NCBI GenBank assembly: GCA_043807405.1
Contig: JAZDGA010000001.1
Coordinates: 25,130 to 89,129, forward strand
Direction of reading: 5' to 3'
Origin: Candidatus Vogelbacteria bacterium
GTDB lineage: Bacteria > Patescibacteriota > Minisyncoccia > Phycocordibacterales > JACOZG01
DNA: 64,000 nucleotides
The notes under the pieces are model-generated. The model had not been told where the DNA came from. It did no database searches and saw only the letters and a program-made list of their open reading frames with translations. Below are positions 4,830-56,439 of the stretch, piece after piece (position 1 is the stretch's first letter; every line of letters starts with the position of its first letter). The translations under genes and the position numbers were made by a program.

Positions 4830-5813
4830 TTAGTTATTTGGCAAAGAGCCGGCCGTTTGCAAAGCCGTGATAATCGGTTCAATGTCGCCGGCGAAAATGC
4901 GATCGAGGTTGTGCCAAGATTGTTTGAGACGATGATCGGTGACACGATCTTGAATGATATTATAAGTTCGGATTTTCTCCGAGCGATCGGCAGTGCCAAT
5001 TTGATTGCGCCGTTCGAGCGCTGCCGATCCCGCCACCGCTGTGTCGTGAATCGTTGCTAATTTATTACGCAAAATAAGCATCGCCTTATCCCGATTGCGG
5101 CTCTGGCTTCGTTCACTCGTACACCGCACCACCATCCCCGACGGCTTATGCGCCACTCGCACCGCCGTCTCGACTTTATTGACGTTCTGCCCGCCTGCGC
5201 CGCCGGAACGACTGAAGGTCACTTCAATATCGCTGGGATTGATTTCAAAAGTGGCAGTTTGGCGAAGCGGAATAACTGCCACGGAAGCGGTAGAAGTGTG
5301 GACTCGTCCGAGTTTCTCGGTCGCTGGTACCCGTTGAATTCGATGGACGCCGCTTTCGTAAAACAAAGCTTTGTCGGCGCCGGAGCCGGAGATTTCGAAA
5401 GTGACTTCTTTATAACCACCGAGTTCCGTCTTCGATTCCGAAAGACAAGTGAAGGTCCATCCGCGAATTCCGGCGTAACGTTCATACATTTCGGCTAATT
5501 TCGCCGCAAACAAGGCCGATTCTTCACCGCCCGCGCCGGCGCGAATCTCTAGAATCAAATTGGCCTTATCAGATTGGTCAACACCGCCAATAGAGTTTCC
5601 CGAGTTTGCCTCGCTGGCGATAATTCGTTCGGCTTGTTGGTAAAGAATTTTCTCTTGCTCGGCCAACTCGCGCGTTTCTTCGGTCGCCAATTCTTTCATC
5701 GCTTGATCACTCGTCGCGAGCCGCTCAAGTTCGGTGATTCGCGCGCGAAGCCGTCCGGCCGCCGTCGCCAGATAAGCCGTCTTAGGATTGTTTCGAAAGA
5801 TCGCCCATTCCAT
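4830..5813 (-). CDS. prfA: peptide chain release factor 1
   Basis: GGQ motif ([17 protein letters not shown]) and the RF1-type PxT tripeptide (RVPATE). Start set at MEWAIF; the longer track ORF would overlap rpmE further. The exact start is uncertain. Confidence 0.85.
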
Positions 5814-6078
5814 GTGAAGTCTTGGTGTTCGATTTGACTCGCGGTTTTTTGAGTTTTTTGGTCGCGCCAATTTCGGTACTTTTCACGCGCCGTTTCTTGA
5901 ACTTCTCCACTCGGCCGGCGGTGTCGAGAATTTTATCTTGGCCCGAGAAAAAAGGATGGCAAGTGCTACAAATCTCGATGTGTAATTTCGGCAAAGTTGA
6001 ACCCACGGTAAACGACGCGCCGCAGGAGCAGGCGACCGCCGCTGTTTCGTGATAAATTGGGTGGATATCGGTTTTCAT
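5782..6078 (-). CDS. rpmE: 50S ribosomal protein L31
   Basis: [23 protein letters not shown]...[10 protein letters not shown]...GRVEKF, a typical Zn-ribbon L31. Confidence 0.9.
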
Positions 6079-6102
6079 AAGACTTATGACTGTAGCAAAA
6101 AA

Positions 6103-7458
6103 TTAATTATTTTGCAACGGATCAATCATATTCAGTTGAATATCCGACACTTTTGCCATCACCTGCTTACCATAAGAACAACTGGCCCCGCCAGTGCCAT
6201 AATATTTGCACGCAGCGCCAATTTCGGCAGTATAACGACGACTGCTTGCGCCCAAGTCCGAGAGATACAGCGCCGTCGCCATAATCGCTTGTTCCGGATT
6301 CCAGGGATCAACTTTATCGCCTGCCAAATTAGCTAGTTGACCAATCCGATCTTTAAATAATTCCCAGGTGGACGGAATAAACTGTGATGGCCCCATCGCT
6401 CCGCCATAACCGCGATTGGGAACATAGCGCGCGCCAGGTGGACAAGAAACTGGAGTCAATTTCCAATCGCGACTTAATCGGCTAGTAATGTTTCGGAAAG
6501 GGACGGTGTCGCGCGGCGCTTTCATCACTTTCTCAAATGGCGTACCCGTATTTTTCCCCACGCCGTCGCCCGTTTCAAGACTAGAGAGAATGCATGAACC
6601 TTGATTTTCGCCTAAATTAGACTCTTGGGTTAAGATCGCCAAAATTAGAGCCGGTCGAACTCCGGTTTTCTGCGATGCCTTAGTGGCGTAATCAAGAGCT
6701 TTGCCAAATGGAATCGCCGCCGTGTCACGAAGGGCGAAGAGCGCCACGCGAATCTGGGCGGCGCGTTTTTGCCGTTCTGACAGCACATTTTTATAATTAA
6801 CTTCCTTATTTTTAGTAATCGAGAGCAACTGTTTTTTCTCAGCTTCTTTCTTTTCAATCAATCTCTTTTCCGCTTCGATCCCTTGTCTGGCGTCAATCTC
6901 GGCTTGTTGTTTATCTTCCAACACCACCTTTGCCTCCTCGGTATCAGTCTTCGTCGTTCGCATTTCGGCAAAAGTTTGATGAATCGCATCCTCGAGATAT
7001 TGGTAAGAATCGACCTCATTAAACAAGTTGGCCAGAGTATCCTTCTCAAAAAGTAATTCCACGATCGTGTTCTCTTCGGCGTTGCGCCGTTTACGCAATA
7101 ATTCCGCCAACGAAACTTTGATCGTTTCAATTCGATCGGTTAATTCAATAATCGTTCCGGCTTTTTTCTTAATATCACCACCCAAACGCGCAATTTCCAG
7201 CTGGTGTTGTTTAATCACTAATTTGGCTCGGTTAATTTGACCGTTCAAAATATCGACATCGCGTTTAAGCGAGGCCCCTTGTTGTCGAGTGACTTGCAGA
7301 AGTTTCGTCTGAGCGTCAATTTGTTGTTCAACCAGTTTAAGTTCGCTTTCTAACGCCACCTTGCGTTCGGCCACTTGATCGGCGGTTTGGCCAAAAGTCA
7401 GTGTTGCGACGAGCAACACAGTGACAACCATAAAAAAACTAACCCGCCGTTTCATCAT
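6103..7458 (-). CDS. secreted coiled-coil protein with a C-terminal MltB/SLT_2-like lytic transglycosylase domain
   Basis: Signal/TM helix at the N-terminus and ~230 aa of heptad-rich sequence. Catalytic-type motifs LAILTQESNLG and YGGAMGPSQFIPSTW. Confidence 0.75.
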   Translation of the reverse strand: MMKRRVSFFMVVTVLLVATLTFGQTADQVAERKVALESELKLVEQQIDAQTKLLQVTRQQGASLKRDVDILNGQINRAKLVIKQHQLEIARLGGDIKKKAGTIIELTDRIETIKVSLAELLRKRRNAEENTIVELLFEKDTLANLFNEVDSYQYLEDAIHQTFAEMRTTKTDTEEAKVVLEDKQQAEIDARQGIEAEKRLIEKKEAEKKQLLSITKNKEVNYKNVLSERQKRAAQIRVALFALRDTAAIPFGKALDYATKASQKTGVRPALILAILTQESNLGENQGSCILSSLETGDGVGKNTGTPFEKVMKAPRDTVPFRNITSRLSRDWKLTPVSCPPGARYVPNRGYGGAMGPSQFIPSTWELFKDRIGQLANLAGDKVDPWNPEQAIMATALYLSDLGASSRRYTAEIGAACKYYGTGGASCSYGKQVMAKVSDIQLNMIDPLQNN

Positions 7459-7470
7459 TGCGACAGTATA

Positions 7471-8142
7471 TCACATGGGTTCTTCAACCACCTTTCCATC
7501 CTCGCCCACCACCGGTTCTTTCCCGCGCTTCTCCACTTCGATCGCCGAGAGATCCACCGGCGCTTCTTCTTCAACTTCCTCTTTCGCCACCGAGATCCCG
7601 GCGACCACTTCATCTGGTTTGTGAGTCGTCGTCACGCCCGCCGGTAAAACTAAATCTTTAACTAAAATCTGACTCTCGAGCGTCGCCAGTGGAGTGACAT
7701 CCACCGTAATCCCGCGCGGTAAATCTTTTGGCAAAGCTTCGATTTCCAATTCATGAAGCACCTTGAGTAATATTCCGCCGAGTTCCTTCACCGCCGGCGC
7801 GAGACCGGTATACTCGATTGGAATTTTAATTTTAAGCATCACATCCTGCTCAATCACATAAAGATCAGCGTGAACTAGTTCACTATTAACCGGATGATAA
7901 GCCACTTCGTGAATCAAAACGCTTTTCTTCCCCGCAGGAGTAGTGAGTGTAATAATTGACGATTCGCCGGCTAATTTGAGTACTTTTTTGAAATCCGCGA
8001 GCGAGACAAAAAGCGAAGTCGGCTTGTCTTTATGACCATAGACCACGACAGGTAAACGCCCGGCACGGCGCTCTTTTTTCAACTCCTTGCCAAAAATTGT
8101 CCGTTCTTTCGCTTCAAGCGTAAACATCCCTCTATTATGCAC
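7471..8142 (-). CDS. rplY: 50S ribosomal protein L25/Ctc
   Basis: FTLEAKERTIFGKELKKERRAGRLPVVVYG and PIEYTG motifs. The track start at 8142 is GTG; the ATG at 8125-8127 (MFTLEA) is the more likely start. Confidence 0.85.
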   Translation of the reverse strand: MHNRGMFTLEAKERTIFGKELKKERRAGRLPVVVYGHKDKPTSLFVSLADFKKVLKLAGESSIITLTTPAGKKSVLIHEVAYHPVNSELVHADLYVIEQDVMLKIKIPIEYTGLAPAVKELGGILLKVLHELEIEALPKDLPRGITVDVTPLATLESQILVKDLVLPAGVTTTHKPDEVVAGISVAKEEVEEEAPVDLSAIEVEKRGKEPVVGEDGKVVEEPM

Positions 8143-49827: not shown

Positions 49828-49984
49828 CTTCGCCCCGCCAATATGGCGGGGCTTCGCGGTGCGAGCACTTAATAGCTTCAGCGACGAGGTGCGAGCATTC
49901 ATCTTCACCGCGAAGGAAGTGGTGTGACCCCGCAGAGTCCCGCGTAACGCAGTGAAGCGGGACAAAGTGGGGTATAATTATTAA

Positions 49985-50224
49985 ATGTATTATGTTTACA
50001 TTTTAAAAAGTCTTAAAGATAATAGTTACTACACTGGCGTTACAATCAATCTTGAAAAAAGATTAACCGAACACAACTCTGGTTATTCAGCCTATTCTTC
50101 ATCAAAAATACCTTTCGAAATAGTTTGGCATTGCACTTTCCTAGACAGGAGTAAGGCCTACAATTTTGAAAAATATTTAAAATCCAGTTCCGGATTCGCT
50201 TTCCGAAATAAACATCTTATTTAA
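49985..50224 (+). CDS. small GIY-YIG nuclease-family protein (79 aa)
   Basis: MYYVYILKS...YYTGVT...LEKRLTEHNSG, the GIY-YIG/UPF0213-type pattern. Confidence 0.8.
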   Translation: MYYVYILKSLKDNSYYTGVTINLEKRLTEHNSGYSAYSSSKIPFEIVWHCTFLDRSKAYNFEKYLKSSSGFAFRNKHLI

Positions 50225-51622: not shown

Positions 51623-51946
51623 GGGCGGTTAGCCCCTCACTCAGAAATTCCTTGGACGATCGATATGTATTACGTTTATTTACTAAAGAGCCGTAAAAAT
51701 GGTAATCTTTATATCGGGTACTCCAGCGATCTTAAGCGCCGTTTAAGTGAACACAACAACGGGCAGAATCGGTCAACTAAACCGTACGCTCCGTATTCAC
51801 TAGTTTATTACGAAGCATATCGATCGTCCGCTGATGCTAAAGAGCGCGAGTCCCAGTTGAAACGTTTTTCTCAAGCATATACTCAGTTAAAACGCCGAGT
51901 TGATAATAGCATCAGCGAGGAATTTCCTGAGTGAGGGGCGGTTAGC
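51623..51946 (+). mobile_element. GIY-YIG nuclease cassette with ~20-nt terminal inverted repeats, flanked by an 11-nt direct repeat of the tRNA 5' end
   Basis: Direct repeat GGGCGGTTAGC at 51623-51633 and 51936-51946. Inverted repeats cccctcactcagaaattcc (51633-51651) and ggaatttcctgagtgagggg (51919-51938). Confidence 0.65.
51665..51934 (+). CDS. small GIY-YIG nuclease-family protein (89 aa)
   Basis: MYYVYLLKS...LYIGYSSDLKRRLSEHNNG. The last 5 codons (EEFPE*) are encoded by the right inverted repeat. Confidence 0.8.
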   Translation: MYYVYLLKSRKNGNLYIGYSSDLKRRLSEHNNGQNRSTKPYAPYSLVYYEAYRSSADAKERESQLKRFSQAYTQLKRRVDNSISEEFPE

Positions 51947-51956
51947 TCAGTTGGTA

Positions 51957-51995
51957 CCCGCCCGAACAAGCCGAACCTCGTTCGGATCGGGCGGG
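51957..51995 (+). repeat. D-loop hairpin element, copy 1 (CCCGCCCGA...TCGGGCGGG)
   Basis: A 9-bp outer stem plus the inner CCGAAC-ctc-GTTCGG hairpin, inserted directly after D-loop GGTA. Confidence 0.75.
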
Positions 51996-52027
51996 GAGCG
52001 TTCGTACACCCCGTCACAAATCAATAC

Positions 52028-52099
52028 GCACCCTTAGCTCAGTGGTAGAGCGTTCCGTTCACATCGGAAAGGGCGTAGGTTCAATCCCTACAGGGTGCA
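52028..52099 (+). tRNA. tRNA-Val (anticodon CAC), intact, nested inside the interrupted tRNA-Val
   Basis: GCACCCT TA GCTC AGTGGTA GAGC G TTCCG TTCACAT CGGAA AGGGC GTAGG TTCAATC CCTAC AGGGTGC A. Confidence 0.9.
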
Positions 52100-52287
52100 T
52101 GGTAAAATTTATGATGGGGCTTCACACGCGAGAGGTCATAGGTTCGAATCCTATACCGCCCAATGTCAACAGGGAACATGTGGATAAGTGCTTTGGGACA
52201 ATCAAGATAATTTATTGTATAATAAATTTGATATCAACCCGTGTTGGGTGTTTCTAAAAAGGTCAAAATAAGTTCATTAATAAAATT

Positions 52288-52926
52288 ATGGAAAACAACA
52301 AAGTCAATCAAAGTAAGTTAGAAAAATCCAAAGAACTTGCCTTGCATTACATGAAAACACTGGTCGAGGTGGCCAGAGAGTCATTCTTAATTCTTGACCC
52401 TAATTTTCGGGTAATTTCGGCGAACGAGGTTTTTTACAGCAATTTTCGGGTTAAACCCGAGCAAACGGAAAATAGGTTGCTTTATGAATTGGGAAATGGT
52501 CAATGGAATATTTCCGAACTGAAAAAATTATTGGAAAAAATCCTGCCAGAGAAAAAAGTGGTAAAAGATTATAGGGTTACACATATTTTCGAAACAATTG
52601 GGAAAAAAACAATGATGCTCAGCGCAAGACAAATAGACTCGGTGCAATTGATTATCTTGGCCATAGAAGATATCAGTGACAGAAAAAAGCTGGAGGAAAA
52701 ATTAGCCAAGCACATCAGAAAGCAAGAAACCTTAATCGCCGAACGGACAGCAAACCTTGCCGATAAAATTAAGGAGTTGGAATCGGTGAATAAAAGCATG
52801 GTGGGGCGAGAACTAAAAATGGTAGAACTCAAAAAAGAAATCATGACTTTAAAACAACGAATTAAAAATGGGAACAGTGAAAACGGCAATAATAATGGCA
52901 ATCATAAAAATGGTCGATCAAAATGA
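52288..52926 (+). CDS. PAS-domain plus coiled-coil protein
   Basis: PAS-like ESFLILDPNFRVISANEVFYSNF...LYELGNGQW, followed by a heptad-rich C-terminus. Overlaps the kinase gene by 4 nt. Confidence 0.6.
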   Translation: MENNKVNQSKLEKSKELALHYMKTLVEVARESFLILDPNFRVISANEVFYSNFRVKPEQTENRLLYELGNGQWNISELKKLLEKILPEKKVVKDYRVTHIFETIGKKTMMLSARQIDSVQLIILAIEDISDRKKLEEKLAKHIRKQETLIAERTANLADKIKELESVNKSMVGRELKMVELKKEIMTLKQRIKNGNSENGNNNGNHKNGRSK

Positions 52927-54188
52927 AATCCAAAACTTCCTTAGATCTTTATAAATCAATACGAAAACAAGTAGAAAAAGAGCTGGCAGATGAAAAGATC
53001 GCCACTCGAAATGTCCTCGAAGATTTAAGTATTGAAAAATCAAAAGTAGAAATAGCCAAAGCTAAAGAAGAAGCAATTTTACTATCAATTGGTGATGGAC
53101 TTTTGGCCACTGACGAAAAAGGGAATCTCACATTTATAAATAAAGTTGCCGAAAAACTACTCGACCAAAAGAGTGAAAAGGTTATAGGAAAAAATTTTTC
53201 TGAAGTCCTTTCAATGGAAGATGAGAGGGGGGTATCTGTTCTACCAGAAAAACGCCCCATAAATATGGCCCTAGCCGGTGGCACTACTACTACTGCTTCT
53301 ACTACTAGTCTAGTCTACTATTATGTACGGAAAGATAAAACAAAATTTCCGGTAGCCACAACGGTAACCCCCGTTCTTCTCGATGGAAAAATGATCGGGG
53401 CAATTGAAATTTTCCGAGACATCACGCGAGAAAAAGAAATTGACCAAGCTAAAACCGGGTTCATTTCCTTAGCTTCTCATCAATTAAAAACACCAGTGAC
53501 AGCAATTAATTGGCTAACAGAGAGACTTTTGGGCAAGGGGGCTGGGGCTCTGACTCCATTACAAAAGGAATATTTTAATGATATCCGTGCAGCTAGTTTG
53601 CGGATGATTGAACTGGTTAACGCGCTTCTTAACATCTCGCGTATTGAACTCGGCGCGTTTGCTATCCAACCAGTGAAAATGAACATTCACAAAGTGATAA
53701 AAAATGCACTTTACGAGTTGCAGCCATTACTAAATCGGAAACATCTGGTACTTAAGGAAAATTATTCTCCAGAAAATCTAGTTGTTCCGATAGACAAACA
53801 ATTATTTCTTATAATAATCAGCAACCTCGTCTTAAATGCTATTCACTACACACCGGAAAACGGGCAAATACAAGTTACCTGCCAACGGCGGGCAACCGAT
53901 GTTATGATCTCAGTTCAAGACACTGGCTGTGGAATTCCGAAACAACAACAAGACAAATTGTTTACCAAATTCTTTCGAGCCGACAACGCTAGGGAAAAAT
54001 CTCCTGATGGAACGGGACTTGGACTTTATTTGGTTAAATTAATCCTTGATCATTCCGGTGGCTTAATCTGGTTTTCGTCACAAGAAAATCAGGGCTCTGT
54101 TTTCTATATAACCATTCCCCTAGAAGGAATGAGAAAACAAACCGGGACCTTGCCCCTCGTTATACCCCAAATTAAAACTGTGATATGA
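52923..54188 (+). CDS. sensor histidine kinase (PAS-HisKA-HATPase_c), no TM segment evident
   Basis: H-box SHQLKTPVTAINW, an N-box region and the G-box GTGLGLYLVKLILDHSGG. Confidence 0.85.
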   Translation: MKSKTSLDLYKSIRKQVEKELADEKIATRNVLEDLSIEKSKVEIAKAKEEAILLSIGDGLLATDEKGNLTFINKVAEKLLDQKSEKVIGKNFSEVLSMEDERGVSVLPEKRPINMALAGGTTTTASTTSLVYYYVRKDKTKFPVATTVTPVLLDGKMIGAIEIFRDITREKEIDQAKTGFISLASHQLKTPVTAINWLTERLLGKGAGALTPLQKEYFNDIRAASLRMIELVNALLNISRIELGAFAIQPVKMNIHKVIKNALYELQPLLNRKHLVLKENYSPENLVVPIDKQLFLIIISNLVLNAIHYTPENGQIQVTCQRRATDVMISVQDTGCGIPKQQQDKLFTKFFRADNAREKSPDGTGLGLYLVKLILDHSGGLIWFSSQENQGSVFYITIPLEGMRKQTGTLPLVIPQIKTVI

Positions 54189-54196
54189 TATAATAT

Positions 54197-54604
54197 GTGC
54201 ATATGACAAAAAGTAAGGAAACGACAATTCTGATTGTCGAAGATGAAGCAGCCCAACGCAAGCCACTTGCCGACGAATTGCGAGACGAGGGATTCCGTGT
54301 TCTCACGGCCCAAAATGGGCAAGAGGGATTGGAGTTAGCGCTGCGTGAACATCCAGATTTAATTTTGCTCGATATTCTTATGCCAGTTATGGATGGTTTA
54401 ACGATGATGAAAAAAATGCGTGAGACAAATTTGTGGGGCAAACAAGTACCAATAATTCTTTTAACAAATTTGAGCGCTAATGAAGAAAAAATGATGCAAG
54501 CAATTACGAGAGATGAACCGGCGTTTTTTCTTGTAAAATCAGACTGGACATTGCAGGATGTCGTAAGTAAGATAAAAGAGCGACTTGCGCAAAACATAGA
54601 TTAA
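54197..54604 (+). CDS. stand-alone response-regulator receiver protein (CheY-like)
   Basis: ILIVEDE, LILLDILMPVMDG and a conserved K region. No output domain. Confidence 0.85.
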   Translation: MHMTKSKETTILIVEDEAAQRKPLADELRDEGFRVLTAQNGQEGLELALREHPDLILLDILMPVMDGLTMMKKMRETNLWGKQVPIILLTNLSANEEKMMQAITRDEPAFFLVKSDWTLQDVVSKIKERLAQNID

Positions 54605-54609
54605 GATAC

Positions 54610-54684
54610 GCGGGGCATGGTGCCTGCCCGACCATTCGGTCGTTCGGGCGGGTAACGGTAACATTCACGACCCGCCCCGCACCA
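54610..54684 (+). other. 75-nt tRNA-like remnant containing D-loop hairpin copy 2 (54623-54652) and ending in ACCA
   Basis: GCGGGGC...GCCCCGC form a 7-bp acceptor-like stem with an ACCA tail. The interior holds CCTGCCCGA...TCGGGCGGG, and no T-arm or cloverleaf can be drawn. Confidence 0.5.
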
Positions 54685-54691
54685 AGTTCAA

Positions 54692-54762
54692 CGGGATGTA
54701 GTATAGTGGTAGTATGCACGATTCGGGTTCGTGCGGCCCGAGTTCGAATCTCGGCATCCCGA
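54692..54762 (+). tRNA. tRNA-Pro (anticodon CGG)
   Basis: CGGGATG TA GTAT AGTGGTA GTAT G CACGA TTCGGGT TCGTG CGGC CCGAG TTCGAAT CTCGG CATCCCG A. Has the C1:G72 pair typical of bacterial tRNA-Pro. Confidence 0.85.
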
Positions 54763-54911
54763 CAGTAAAACTTTGGTGTGGGGTTCGCAGGTTCGTGAGA
54801 CTCTGGGTTCTCCGCCAGTTGGCGGACCAGTGCCCTGATTGGTAAAATCTGATATAATGAAGATTGTTGTTTGTTATAAATTTGAACCTTGAAAATTGAA
54901 AACGGAGGAAG

Positions 54912-56198
54912 ATGCATATGGGTCAAAATGTTTTAATCGTCGGCGGGGGCGGAAGAGAACATGCCCTAGCGTGGAAACTCGCGCAATCGCCTCGTATCAG
55001 CAATCTCTATATCGCACCGGGAAATGGCGGTACGCGTCAAATTGGTGAAAATATTCCAATTAGTACTACTGACATTCCGAGTCTTGTTAACTTCGCCAAG
55101 GAGAAGCAGGTGGATATGACTGTAGTTGGACCAGACGATCCGCTAGCGCTTGGTATTGTGGATGCTTTTCAAGCTCGAGGACTACGGATATTCGGACCAA
55201 CGCAAGTGGCGACGGAAATTGAATCATCCAAAGCTTTCGCAAAAGATTTGATGACCGAAGAAAATATTCCAACCGCCACCTTCCGTATTTTTTGCAAGCA
55301 CCGCGAAGCACTAGCGTATGTTCGCCAACACGGGACACCGATTGTGGTGAAAGCCGATGGACTTACTCTCGGCAAGGGCGCGTATGTTTGTAAAACATTG
55401 GCGGAAGCAGAAACTGCCCTAGCGGAAATCATGCTTGACCGTATCTACAAAGAGGCAGGAAGGCAAGTAGTTATCGAGGAATTTCTTGATGGCCAAGAAA
55501 TCTCTATCCATACTTTCTGCGACGGAGAAACTTCTATTTTGCTACCGTCTTCTCAAGACCACAAGCCAATACGTGACGGCGACGAAGGTCGGAACACCGG
55601 TGGCATGGGAACGATCGCGCCGGTTCCATGGTTAAGCGTAGAAGCGATGCGAACAATTGACAAACAAATTGTCCGGCCAACTCTTGAAGCCCTCGCGAAC
55701 CGTGGCAGGAAATTCACTGGTTTGCTCTATCCGGGACTCAAGCTGACAAGTAGCGGACCGAGGGTAATTGAGTTCAATGCGCGGTTCGGCGATCCGGAAA
55801 CACAAAGTTATATGCGTCTTCTCAAAACCGACCTGCTCGATATCTTGGAAGCGTGCGTGAACGGGACACTCGCAAAACTAACGATTGAGTGGCACACCGG
55901 CTTCGCCGCATGTGTCGTCATTGCCTCCACCGGTTATCCTGATGTATACAAAAAAGGATTTCCAATCCATGGTGTCACCGAAGCTGAAAATGTTCCGGGG
56001 GTTATCGTTTTCCATGCAGGAACAAGTTTTGATCAGGAGCTCAAAACTGCCGGCGGGCGTGTCCTTGGCGTAACAGCAATCGGTAACACGCTCCGCGATA
56101 CGCTTAACCGAGCCTACGAAGCAGCCCGTTTTATTAAGTTTGAGGGTATGCAGTATCGACACGATATCGGAGCGAAAGCTCTCACCACTGGGTTCTAG
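54912..56198 (+). CDS. purD: phosphoribosylamine-glycine ligase
   Basis: VLIVGGGGREHALAWKL, an ATP-grasp core and EFNARFGDPETQ. Confidence 0.9.
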   Translation: MHMGQNVLIVGGGGREHALAWKLAQSPRISNLYIAPGNGGTRQIGENIPISTTDIPSLVNFAKEKQVDMTVVGPDDPLALGIVDAFQARGLRIFGPTQVATEIESSKAFAKDLMTEENIPTATFRIFCKHREALAYVRQHGTPIVVKADGLTLGKGAYVCKTLAEAETALAEIMLDRIYKEAGRQVVIEEFLDGQEISIHTFCDGETSILLPSSQDHKPIRDGDEGRNTGGMGTIAPVPWLSVEAMRTIDKQIVRPTLEALANRGRKFTGLLYPGLKLTSSGPRVIEFNARFGDPETQSYMRLLKTDLLDILEACVNGTLAKLTIEWHTGFAACVVIASTGYPDVYKKGFPIHGVTEAENVPGVIVFHAGTSFDQELKTAGGRVLGVTAIGNTLRDTLNRAYEAARFIKFEGMQYRHDIGAKALTTGF

Positions 56199-56229
56199 TT
56201 CCTTCGGGGGCTAGAACCCTTTTTCTTTT
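56190..56229 (+). terminator. rho-independent terminator of purD (hairpin includes the stop codon)
   Basis: GGGTTCTAG-ttccttcgggg-CTAGAACCC followed by TTTTTCTTTT. Confidence 0.7.
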
Positions 56230-56272
56230 CGGTTTGCTTTTCTCCGCCAATTTCGTTATCATTTTTTAGATT

Positions 56273-56367
56273 GGGCTCATCGTATAGTGGTACCCGCCCG
56301 ACCGAATGACTTCGGTCGTTCGGGCGGGGTACGCGGCATTCGCACCGCGCCCGCCAGACGATCACAA
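56273..56367 (+). pseudogene. 5' half of a tRNA-Ala(CGC)-like gene carrying D-loop hairpin copy 3 (56293-56328); no 3' half found
   Basis: GGGCTCA TC GTAT AGTGGTA [CCCGCCCGA..TCGGGCGGG] GTAC G CGGCA TTCGCAC, after which it diverges. Lies immediately upstream of the intact tRNA-Ala(CGC). Confidence 0.55.
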
Positions 56368-56438
56368 GGGCCTATAGTCTAGTAGTACGACGCGTCATTC
56401 GCATTGACGAGGCGGGGGTGCGATTCCCCCTAGGTCCA
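56368..56438 (+). tRNA. tRNA-Ala (anticodon CGC)
   Basis: GGGCCTA TA GTCT AGTAGTA CGAC G CGTCA TTCGCAT TGACG AGGC GGGGG TGCGATT CCCCC TAGGTCC A. G3:U70 is present. Confidence 0.85.
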
Positions 56439-56439
56439 C

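Follow-up and report, generated by a model that had tools for sequence, protein, structure and literature searches.

GC-rich hairpins in tRNA genes split by tRNA cassettes: a likely mobile palindrome of Patescibacteria

In a 64-kb stretch of DNA from Candidatus Vogelbacteria bacterium (contig JAZDGA010000001.1, hereafter the window), three resident tRNA genes each carried two insertions, namely a hairpin of 30–39 nt in the D arm and a cassette with an intact tRNA gene in the anticodon loop. The hairpin is probably a mobile palindrome that resides in three replaced, cassette-split tRNA genes and has no role in the expression of the downstream tRNA. Among the explanations offered in a preliminary description of this DNA, a miniature mobile element was the one that stood: a near-identical relative has an empty site, members of the hairpin family occur in unrelated contigs, and insertions in protein genes are lineage-specific. 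Coordinates without a label refer to the window, and L-numbers such as L001, L007 and L201 are labels of comparison loci or contigs.

Hairpins and cassettes in resident tRNA genes

The three hairpins and the intact tRNA-Val(CAC), tRNA-Pro(CGG) and tRNA-Ala(CGC) genes downstream of them had been reported in the preliminary description, and both were confirmed, the tRNA genes by ARAGORN and Rfam. All hairpins were stably folded, with predicted energies of -24.5, -17.0 and -23.7 kcal/mol for copies 1, 2 and 3 (z -3.3 to -4.3). The exact-arm pattern CCCGCCCGA-N8-30-TCGGGCGGG had two matches in the window and none in dinucleotide shuffles; copy 2 has a single arm mismatch (CCTGCCCGA) and hence falls outside the pattern. 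The stem spans the first to the last inserted base, with no 3-nt bulges at the junctions. A common D-loop position had been claimed for all three. This held for copies 1 and 3, which follow the D-loop GGTA between positions 21 and 22, and did not hold for copy 2, which splits the D stem between positions 12 and 13. The D arm at copy 2 reads CGGGGCA TG GTG^T AACGGTA ACAT, and the 'GGTG' there does not correspond to G18G19; ARAGORN accepted this split D arm once the Pro gene had been repaired in silico. Searching Rfam at the gathering threshold and at E<=5 returned no family for the hairpin, the tRNA halves or the cassette arms.

The sequences first seen as 'tRNA-like 5′ modules' are indeed 5′ parts of tRNAs. 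They belong to the resident Val-CAC, Pro-CGG and Ala-CGC genes of a host in the Patescibacteria or candidate phyla radiation (CPR), and the Val and Pro genes are not confined to 5′ parts, since their 3′ parts lie beyond the inner tRNA (52121–52162 and 54784–54838). The intact Val and Pro tRNA genes are thus nested in the old ones. When the three outer Val parts were joined in silico, ARAGORN returned a canonical 73-nt tRNA-Val(cac) with a perfect cloverleaf. The minimum free energy structure of the native 228-nt locus was a cloverleaf inside a cloverleaf (-91.6 kcal/mol, z -5.2), in which the insert flanks CCCCGUCA/UGAUGGGG are predicted to lengthen the outer anticodon stem. The outer Pro gene is degenerate and runs CGGGGCA TG GTG^hairpin^T AACGGTA ACAT T CACGA^cassette^TTCGCAGGT TCGTG ... 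TGCCCTG A. The anticodon loop of this gene comprises 9 nt, and most of its T loop has given way to a second mini-palindrome, TCCGCCAGTTGGCGGA (54811–54826); ARAGORN called it a tRNA-Pro only after both defects had been mended in silico. The 3′ half of the outer Ala gene was sought and not found in the window. The outer genes thus form a decay series, from the perfect Val through the Pro with its enlarged anticodon loop and broken T arm to the Ala with no 3′ half in the window. In the native sequence, the intron mode of ARAGORN missed the outer genes until the hairpin was excised and gave many spurious long-intron calls.

The cassettes are 115–135 nt long, have inverted-repeat ends, carry a complete tRNA of the same anticodon and sit in the anticodon loop. 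The arms of cassette 1 are the inverted repeats CCCCGTCA and TGATGGGG. For cassette 3 the right arm was not recognisable, and a terminator-like hairpin comes after the inner tRNA. Target duplications could not be defined for the tRNA cassettes. A matching anticodon had been noted for two of the three loci. Outer and inner genes appear to share it in all three, although for Pro, the outer loop of which is corrupted (TTCGCAGGT), this is only likely. Counting the comparison loci, replacement was like for like in four of five nested cases; the exception was L137, in which the outer piece is a CAT tRNA and the inner gene is Trp. The like-for-like pattern might stem either from selection acting on single-copy tRNA genes or from homing by means of tRNA homology in the flanks. 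The positions of the features in the window, and of the hairpins in tRNA pieces of four comparison loci, are collected in Table 1.

Table 1. Hairpins, cassettes, outer tRNA genes and GIY-YIG reading frames in the window, and hairpin positions in tRNA pieces elsewhere
Feature	Position	Strand	Description
Hairpin copy 1	51957–51995	+	39 nt; variant inner stem CCGAAC/GTTCGG; at 21/22 of resident tRNA-Val(CAC)
Hairpin copy 2	54623–54652	+	30 nt; arm CCTGCCCGA; D stem 12/13 of resident tRNA-Pro; nhmmer family match
Hairpin copy 3	56293–56328	+	36 nt; near family consensus; at 21/22 of resident tRNA-Ala(CGC); nhmmer match
Cassette 1	52006–52120	+	115-nt insert; left arm ACACCCCGTCACAAATCAATAC; tRNA-Val(CAC) 52028–52099; right arm TGGTAAAATTTATGATGGGGC
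Cassette 2	54671–54783	+	left arm CCCGCCCCGCACCAAGTTCAA; tRNA-Pro(CGG) 54692–54763; right arm CAGTAAAACTTTGGTGTGGGG; flanks form a 13-bp inverted repeat
Cassette 3	56345–56439	+	left arm CCGCGCCCGCCAGACGATCACAA; tRNA-Ala(CGC) 56368–56439, intact, differs from outer Ala
Outer tRNA-Val(CAC)	51936–52162	+	parts GGGCGGTTAGCTCAGTTGGTA (51936–51956), GAGCGTTCGT (51996–52005), TTCACACGCGAGAGGTCATAGGTTCGAATCCTATACCGCCCA (52121–52162); split by hairpin 1 and cassette 1
Outer tRNA-Pro, degenerate	54611–54838	+	parts 54611–54622, 54653–54670, 54784–54838
Outer tRNA-Ala(CGC)	56273–56344	+	positions 1–37 only (56273–56292, 56329–56344); matches uninterrupted orthologue L001:1742-1812
GIY-YIG element	51623–51937	+	directly upstream of outer tRNA-Val; duplicate of tRNA-Val positions 1–11 (51623–51633); inverted repeats CCCTCACTCAGAAATTCCT (51634–51652) and AGGAATTTCCTGAGTGAGGG (51918–51937); reading frame of 89 aa at 51665–51934
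Second GIY-YIG reading frame	49985–50224		157 nt downstream of tRNA-Ala(GGC)
Hairpin in L137	D loop 21/22 of CAT-tRNA 5′ half		upstream of intact tRNA-Trp
Hairpins in L160, two copies	T loop 56/57 of 3′ fragments		fragments flank a GIY-YIG reading frame
Hairpin in L182	T arm		
Hairpin in L190	26/27 of duplicated 3′ part		downstream of intact tRNA-Arg and GIY-YIG reading frame

A bacterial host was indicated by a D-Ala-D-Ala ligase (Ddl), PurD and a two-component system in the window, and the nearest PurD relatives came from metagenome-assembled genomes of Patescibacteria/CPR, with up to 75% identity; searching for a protein identical to the window PurD gave no match. The closest of these relatives, L001, has an uninterrupted tRNA-Ala(CGC) gene behind purD, and the sequence of this tRNA gene agrees with the 5′ part of the outer Ala gene. 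L202–L206 carry a homologue (80% aa identity) of the 89-aa GIY-YIG protein encoded upstream of the outer Val gene, with an intact tRNA-Val after the stop codon. In L201, the identity was 99% at the amino acid level and 95.5% at the nucleotide level, and the alignment reached window base 51956, one before the hairpin. There, L201 continues as GGTA|GAGCGTT, an empty site with neither a hairpin nor a duplication. The comparison of orthologous loci, which had been proposed as a check, therefore revealed presence/absence polymorphism. Since the orthologous loci are uninterrupted and L201 has an empty site, it follows that the outer genes are the resident copies and that the hairpin, which was inserted precisely, is the derived state.

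Several observations around purD stand beside these. In L007 (5782–7540), purD (6001–7269) has an intact tRNA-Ala(TGC) on one side and, on the other, an exact 36-nt copy of the 3′ half of this tRNA (39–74), and therefore seems to be within a tRNA-targeted insertion. The window purD is bracketed by the disrupted Pro and Ala genes, like purD in L007. In L001, a GC-rich inverted repeat of about 60 nt (AAAATTCCTGAACCCGTCCGCTCGGGCGGCGCGGGGTGGGG..., at 1–60 and 1577–1640) flanks purD. L018 contains two 44-nt GC palindromes (CCCGCCCGCAACGCC...GGCAGGCGGG, at 5090–5133 and 7454–7497) with identical 25-nt flanks, and a 3′ fragment of a tRNA-Ala(CGC) (5189–5205) lies near a palindrome.

The hairpin family and its targets

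An exact-arm scan of metagenomes gave many chance palindromes of high GC content and a coherent low-GC group, found in both orientations, with the consensus CCCGCCCGACTGAACGACTTCAGTCGTTCGGGCGGG; the palindrome is imperfect, so its orientation can be defined. The element is 26–48 bp long and consists of two inverted arms and a small loop, with the ends CCCG...CGGG. Its inner stem is kept by compensatory changes (UA/CG four times at 11:22 and AU/GC three times at 13:20), and the alternative pairing register is likewise largely paired. Besides the three copies in the window, two each were found in L130, L163 and L160, and the family extended to dozens of contigs overall. Presence was polymorphic both at the L201 site and in the gene for MsrA. 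Three other identities were ruled out: an intrinsic terminator because a T-run after the stem was absent, a clustered regularly interspaced short palindromic repeat (CRISPR) because the copies are single and arrays were absent, and an assembly artefact by the three loci and the same architecture in the independent genome L007.

Contexts and lengths were counted in a strictly defined set of 33 copies and junctions were tested in 36. In the pattern-selected metagenome sample, which was chosen by exact 9-nt arms and whose context proportions are biased, at least nine of the 33 copies were coding, about 14 were non-coding and five lay in tRNA pieces. Non-coding copies in L149 (1035–1160), L104, L132, L083 and L099 were embedded in short tandem or low-complexity repeats, for example GGTTCCTGGTTTCTGG or CAAGAACCAAGAAAC. 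A further 0.97 Mb, made up of the window, purD loci and GIY-YIG loci, had not been chosen for the hairpin, and here the hairpin profile matched only the three window copies and L007, all in dead tRNA pieces. Exact-arm hairpins were absent from the purD-flank loci of 80 genomes, of which L007 alone gave related copies once the search was relaxed and nhmmer was used. Viral contigs yielded mainly high-GC palindromes of the terminator type and only about five family-like copies, and a phage vector was not indicated.

L007 has a nested locus of its own, in which a related hairpin interrupts the outer tRNA-Met at 9/10 and the inserted cassette has 15–22-bp inverted repeats and an intact tRNA-Met (fold -119.7 kcal/mol, z -6.2). 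At two more L007 loci, a hairpin-bearing 5′ tRNA piece is followed by a GIY-YIG open reading frame (ORF) and an intact tRNA (Met; Asp), and the outer pieces in this genome carry deletions. The position of the hairpin within tRNA pieces varied (9/10, 12/13, ~18, 21/22, 26/27 and 56/57). GGTR adjoined the element in seven of the 36 copies, compared to 0.56 expected (p ~1e-6), and T was the commonest base at -2 of the insertion junction. Given this junction preference, the universal D-loop GGTA and T-loop GTTC are natural hot spots, and copies persist in dead tRNA genes because live ones cannot tolerate the insertion. The preliminary idea of an element targeting the D loop survives as a preference for GGTR, which the wider search with flanks brought out, and fails as a rule, because most metagenome copies lie outside tRNA sequence and the positions inside it vary.

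Copies in protein genes were found in long, intact ORFs, which Pfam identified as RecG, SecA, UvrD, NusA, GyrA, MsrA, ATP synthase gamma (AtpG), GlmS, a DinG-like helicase and an ADP-forming acyl-CoA synthetase; the Pfam domains continue on both sides of the coding copies. In MsrA, compared with PDB 2j89, exactly 12 residues (PARPDDSGRSGG) are inserted between TTLNRQ and GNDVGTQYRS with a clean NRQ|GND junction. The insert was absent from the nearest Patescibacteria homologues (76–87% identity) and present only in a protein with 99% identity. The length was a multiple of three in nine of nine coding copies compared to five of 14 clearly non-coding copies (Fisher p=0.0026), and the PAR...SGG reading phase was used by eight of the nine. 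As the coding lengths obey the frame, the element is carried into the protein and is not spliced out. No GIY-YIG gene lay near the hairpins in protein genes.

Candidate mechanisms and rival explanations

The most probable explanation is that the hairpin belongs to a very short, GC-rich, quasi-palindromic family of mobile DNA elements of CPR/Patescibacteria, 26–48 bp in length. It would insert precisely, without a target-site duplication and with a weak preference for GGTR| or GTTC| junctions, by transposition that we infer to occur at the DNA level. The three resident tRNA genes of the window were also each split in the anticodon loop by a tRNA cassette of the same anticodon, and the order of these events, too, is inferred. 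The outer genes would then be pseudogenes at different stages of decay that have lost their function, and decoding would be done by the inner, cassette-borne tRNAs. A dead tRNA gene would keep the hairpin, as it offers preferred motifs (D-loop GGTA, T-loop GTTC) and no counter-selection. In protein genes, only in-frame copies would survive, to be translated as PAR...SGG loops of 10–13 residues.

Several points weigh against this explanation. The hairpin is present in every dead tRNA piece examined (window, L007, L137, L160 and L190), which exceeds what passive accumulation would easily give and may mean that hairpin and disruption are mechanistically linked. An outer tRNA-Val that is flawless without its inserts is also expected of a functional interrupted gene. 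The genome was covered over 64 kb, and further Val-CAC, Pro-CGG and Ala-CGC genes, as well as the Ala 3′ half, may lie outside the window. No transposase or autonomous copy with the ends of the hairpin was identified, and the bias in the pattern-selected sample counts here as well.

Small GIY-YIG elements lie beside the same tRNA genes. The one upstream of the outer tRNA-Val is about 300 bp in size, and its ORF stops 1 nt before the tRNA gene. The same architecture was found at L201:1662-1978, L202:2470-2790, L343:1170-1480 and L344:1165-1490. In these elements, the sole ORF encodes a predicted GIY-YIG nuclease of 84–89 aa between inverted repeats of 12–20 bp (CCCTCAC...GTGAGGG), a direct repeat of tRNA positions 1–11 (e.g. 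GGGCGGTTAGC) bounds the element, and an intact tRNA (Val, Ala-CGC or Ala-GGC) follows directly after the stop codon. The unit looks like an insertion sequence (IS) or a miniature inverted-repeat transposable element (MITE) with a GIY-YIG gene, and to our knowledge no such family is known. GIY-YIG ORFs, of 82–89 aa, adjoined tRNA genes twice in the window, in L202–L206 (Val), in L217–L226 (Trp), twice in L007, in L084, twice in L160, and in L190, L343 and L344.

Some further features of the GIY-YIG loci were noted. The spacer between tRNA-Ala(GGC) and the second GIY-YIG ORF of the window (49828–49984) contains GC palindromes (GCCCCGCCAATATGGCGGGGC, ~49833–49853), whose core CCGCCA..TGGCGG resembles the T-loop mini-palindrome of the outer tRNA-Pro. 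GIY-YIG genes formed tandem pairs in L207:1501-2676 and L217:1501-2209; L207/L208 have two identical 86-aa copies, and in L217–L224 two different copies flank tRNA-Trp. The contigs L201 and L203–L206 end within or just past the adjacent tRNA. This suggests that assemblies break at repeated or polymorphic tRNA loci, and such architectures are therefore probably under-sampled.

Small GIY-YIG elements may drive tRNA-gene rearrangements, and the hairpin could be a working part of a replacement system built on them, an alternative that we regard as doubtful. Both the GIY-YIG elements and the tRNA cassettes, as derivatives without an ORF, would enter tRNA genes by homing or transposition. The hairpin would be either a minimal, ends-only derivative or else a scar or insert by which the old copy is put out of action, which would leave the host dependent on the element-borne tRNA and protect the invaded allele. 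The recurrent position of GIY-YIG ORFs next to tRNA genes, and the CCCTCAC repeats and 11-nt duplicate of the tRNA 5′ end that bound them, would fit such a system, as would the like-for-like replacement in four of five cases. At the Met and Asp loci of L007, the architecture of the window is found with the ORF still there, and whole hairpins lie at the end of a GIY-YIG ORF in L190 and on both sides of one in L160. The cassette arms (L007 CCCTCACACCAA; window cassette 2 CCCCGCACCAA) resemble the GIY-YIG repeats, which suggests, from short stretches of sequence, that the cassettes, and perhaps the hairpin too, derive from one GIY-YIG element superfamily. However, this similarity of termini is short and could be due to chance; GIY-YIG ends beginning CCCTCAC were only loosely similar to those of the hairpin, and no identical ends were found. 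Hairpins in protein genes occur without a nearby GIY-YIG gene, and many GIY-YIG elements occur without a hairpin (L202, L217, L343–L345). The hairpin lacks a target duplication, in contrast to the 11–25 nt of duplicated tRNA at GIY-YIG elements. L137, with its Trp gene behind a CAT outer piece, was not like for like, and the 82–89-aa proteins comprise the catalytic domain only, with a nuclease activity that is predicted.

It is very unlikely that the outer genes are functional interrupted tRNA genes whose inserts are introns removed at the RNA level, either through a bacterial pathway of unknown kind or once RNase P/Z has excised the inner tRNA, as in archaeal multi-intron or split tRNAs. In favour of introns, cutting out the inserts leaves a canonical outer tRNA-Val, the anticodon stem is lengthened by the insert flanks in the manner of intron helices, and the inserts sit in loops, as they do in tRNA genes of Thermoproteales. 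Against introns, the host is bacterial according to Ddl and the Patescibacteria relatives of its purD, a bulge-helix-bulge motif is absent and the hairpin stem lies wholly inside the insert. At the same Rfam thresholds as above, no group I intron was matched; the catalytic core of such introns (P3–P9) typically exceeds 200 nt, and 72 of the 115 nt of the Val insert are tRNA. The lack of an Ala 3′ half in the window, the defective anticodon loop and T arm of Pro and the deleted L007 pieces would not be expected of genes in use. Copies in ORFs obey the reading frame and are thus unspliced there, and the outer tRNA is superfluous beside an inner one that has its anticodon.

It is even less credible that the hairpin module is a processing or regulatory leader of the downstream tRNA, with mutually exclusive pairings acting as a switch. 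The alternative pairing proposed in the preliminary description does exist when the 5′ modules are folded alone, where the G-rich 3′ arm of the hairpin can pair with the downstream C-run and the alternative wins. It does not persist in the full locus, where the partner of the C-run is the far cassette arm and the hairpin remains closed. The CCCGCC/CCCCG runs are the left inverted-repeat arms of the cassettes, and their partners are the GGGG runs beyond the inner tRNA. Moreover, the module is absent from orthologous tRNA loci, the hairpin is also found inside unrelated ORFs, and its position and orientation relative to the tRNA vary. A repeat derived from tRNA, like a short interspersed element, was rejected, since the modules are syntenic resident genes found at the orthologous tRNA positions of relatives (L001 for Ala, L201–L206 for Val), each different in sequence.

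If the hairpin is a mobile palindrome in replaced tRNA genes, tRNA finders report the inner genes only and miss the nested pseudogenes, and protein annotations silently contain PAR...SGG inserts. CPR genomes, which are regarded as streamlined, would be home to an active family of minute mobile palindromes, able to enter essential genes such as those for SecA, GyrA, NusA and RecG without killing them. A complete tRNA gene that sits in the anticodon loop of the very gene it replaces would be a new arrangement in bacteria and a concrete handle on the turnover of single-copy tRNA genes in reduced genomes. The recurrence of tiny, inverted-repeat-bounded GIY-YIG elements suggests a candidate for a new nuclease-based mobility mechanism. 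It is conceivable, though improbable, that CPR harbour an undescribed system specialised in tRNA genes, with GIY-YIG elements of about 300 bp, ORF-less derivatives with tRNA cargo and the ends-only hairpin acting as a 'kill and replace' drive at the DNA level. In that case, the resident tRNA gene would be destroyed and an element copy with the same anticodon substituted for it, making the element indispensable. The hairpin form would, in addition, reach essential protein genes, where it would be translated into a loop of 12 residues. Literature searches in open full texts, aimed at CPR tRNA introns, nested tRNAs and in-frame CPR palindromes, returned nothing relevant. We came across neither an account of the CPR hairpin family nor one of bacterial tRNA genes replaced by nested copies in this literature, which leaves subscription journals outside its coverage and a prior description possible.

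Comparison with known systems

The best supported comparison is with Rickettsia palindromic elements (RPEs), repetitive extragenic palindromic sequences (REPs) and small dispersed repeats, all of which the hairpin appears to resemble in behaviour. RPEs were reportedly described by Ogata et al. in 2000. They are summarised in a review of MITEs (PMC10969869). Like the hairpin, they are palindromic, selfish DNA in a reduced bacterial genome, lie in frame in unrelated housekeeping ORFs, are translated as a conserved peptide compatible with protein function, and also occur in RNA genes. In contrast, RPEs are about 100–150 bp long and confined to Rickettsia, whereas the hairpin is 26–48 bp, GC-rich and found in CPR; unlike RPEs, it inserts without duplicating its target and shows a striking enrichment in tRNA genes that have been disrupted.

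REPs and their hairpin-forming doublets (REPINs), which are mobilised by a REP-associated tyrosine transposase (RAYT), are likewise imperfect palindromes of 20–40 nt, dispersed and lineage-conserved, of which a single strand forms a hairpin (PMC3116915, PMC3733652). However, REPs are extragenic and have a GTAG or CGTC head, whereas the hairpin starts with CCCG and enters genes, with at least nine copies in ORFs. No Y1 (RAYT) transposase was found among the ORFs near the loci, which were the ORFs scanned. With MITEs the hairpin shares its shortness, the absence of coding capacity, terminal inverted repeats and many dispersed, polymorphic copies. It differs from them in target-site duplication, as the junctions at L201 (GGTA|GAGC) and in MsrA (NRQ|GND) are clean.

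Small dispersed repeats of Nostocaceae are reported to have been described by Elhai et al. (2008, Genome Res 18:1484; cited in PMC3116915). These repeats, as well as mitochondrial GC clusters and coding palindromes (e.g. PMC6649704), are hairpin-forming mobile repeats of about 20–40 nt and, like the hairpin, can lie inside structured elements or coding sequence of an AT-richer genome. Their sequence families and hosts differ from those of the hairpin. We know of no described association of them with replaced tRNA genes or GIY-YIG elements.

Archaeal multi-intron, split and permuted tRNA genes (PMC4390854, PMC4033280, PMC3978253) are similar in that the D arm, anticodon loop and T loop are interrupted and complementary flanks join the halves. 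The archaeal disrupted genes are functional and need a bulge-helix-bulge and EndA, whereas the outer genes described here are bacterial, lack that motif, decay and contain a second, complete tRNA. For elements at tRNA loci, phage T4 SegB is said to be a free-standing GIY-YIG homing endonuclease encoded in a tRNA cluster. As with integrative elements and GIY-YIG homing genes at such loci, tRNA-targeting mobile DNA resupplies a disrupted tRNA and a GIY-YIG gene lies beside tRNAs. The predicted nuclease described here is unlike those of the known elements in its size of 82–89 aa, in lacking a DNA-binding domain and in having inverted repeats on both sides. Integrases copy the 3′ end region of a tRNA and leave a single orphan fragment behind, whereas at the nested loci the anticodon loop of one tRNA gene holds its entire counterpart.

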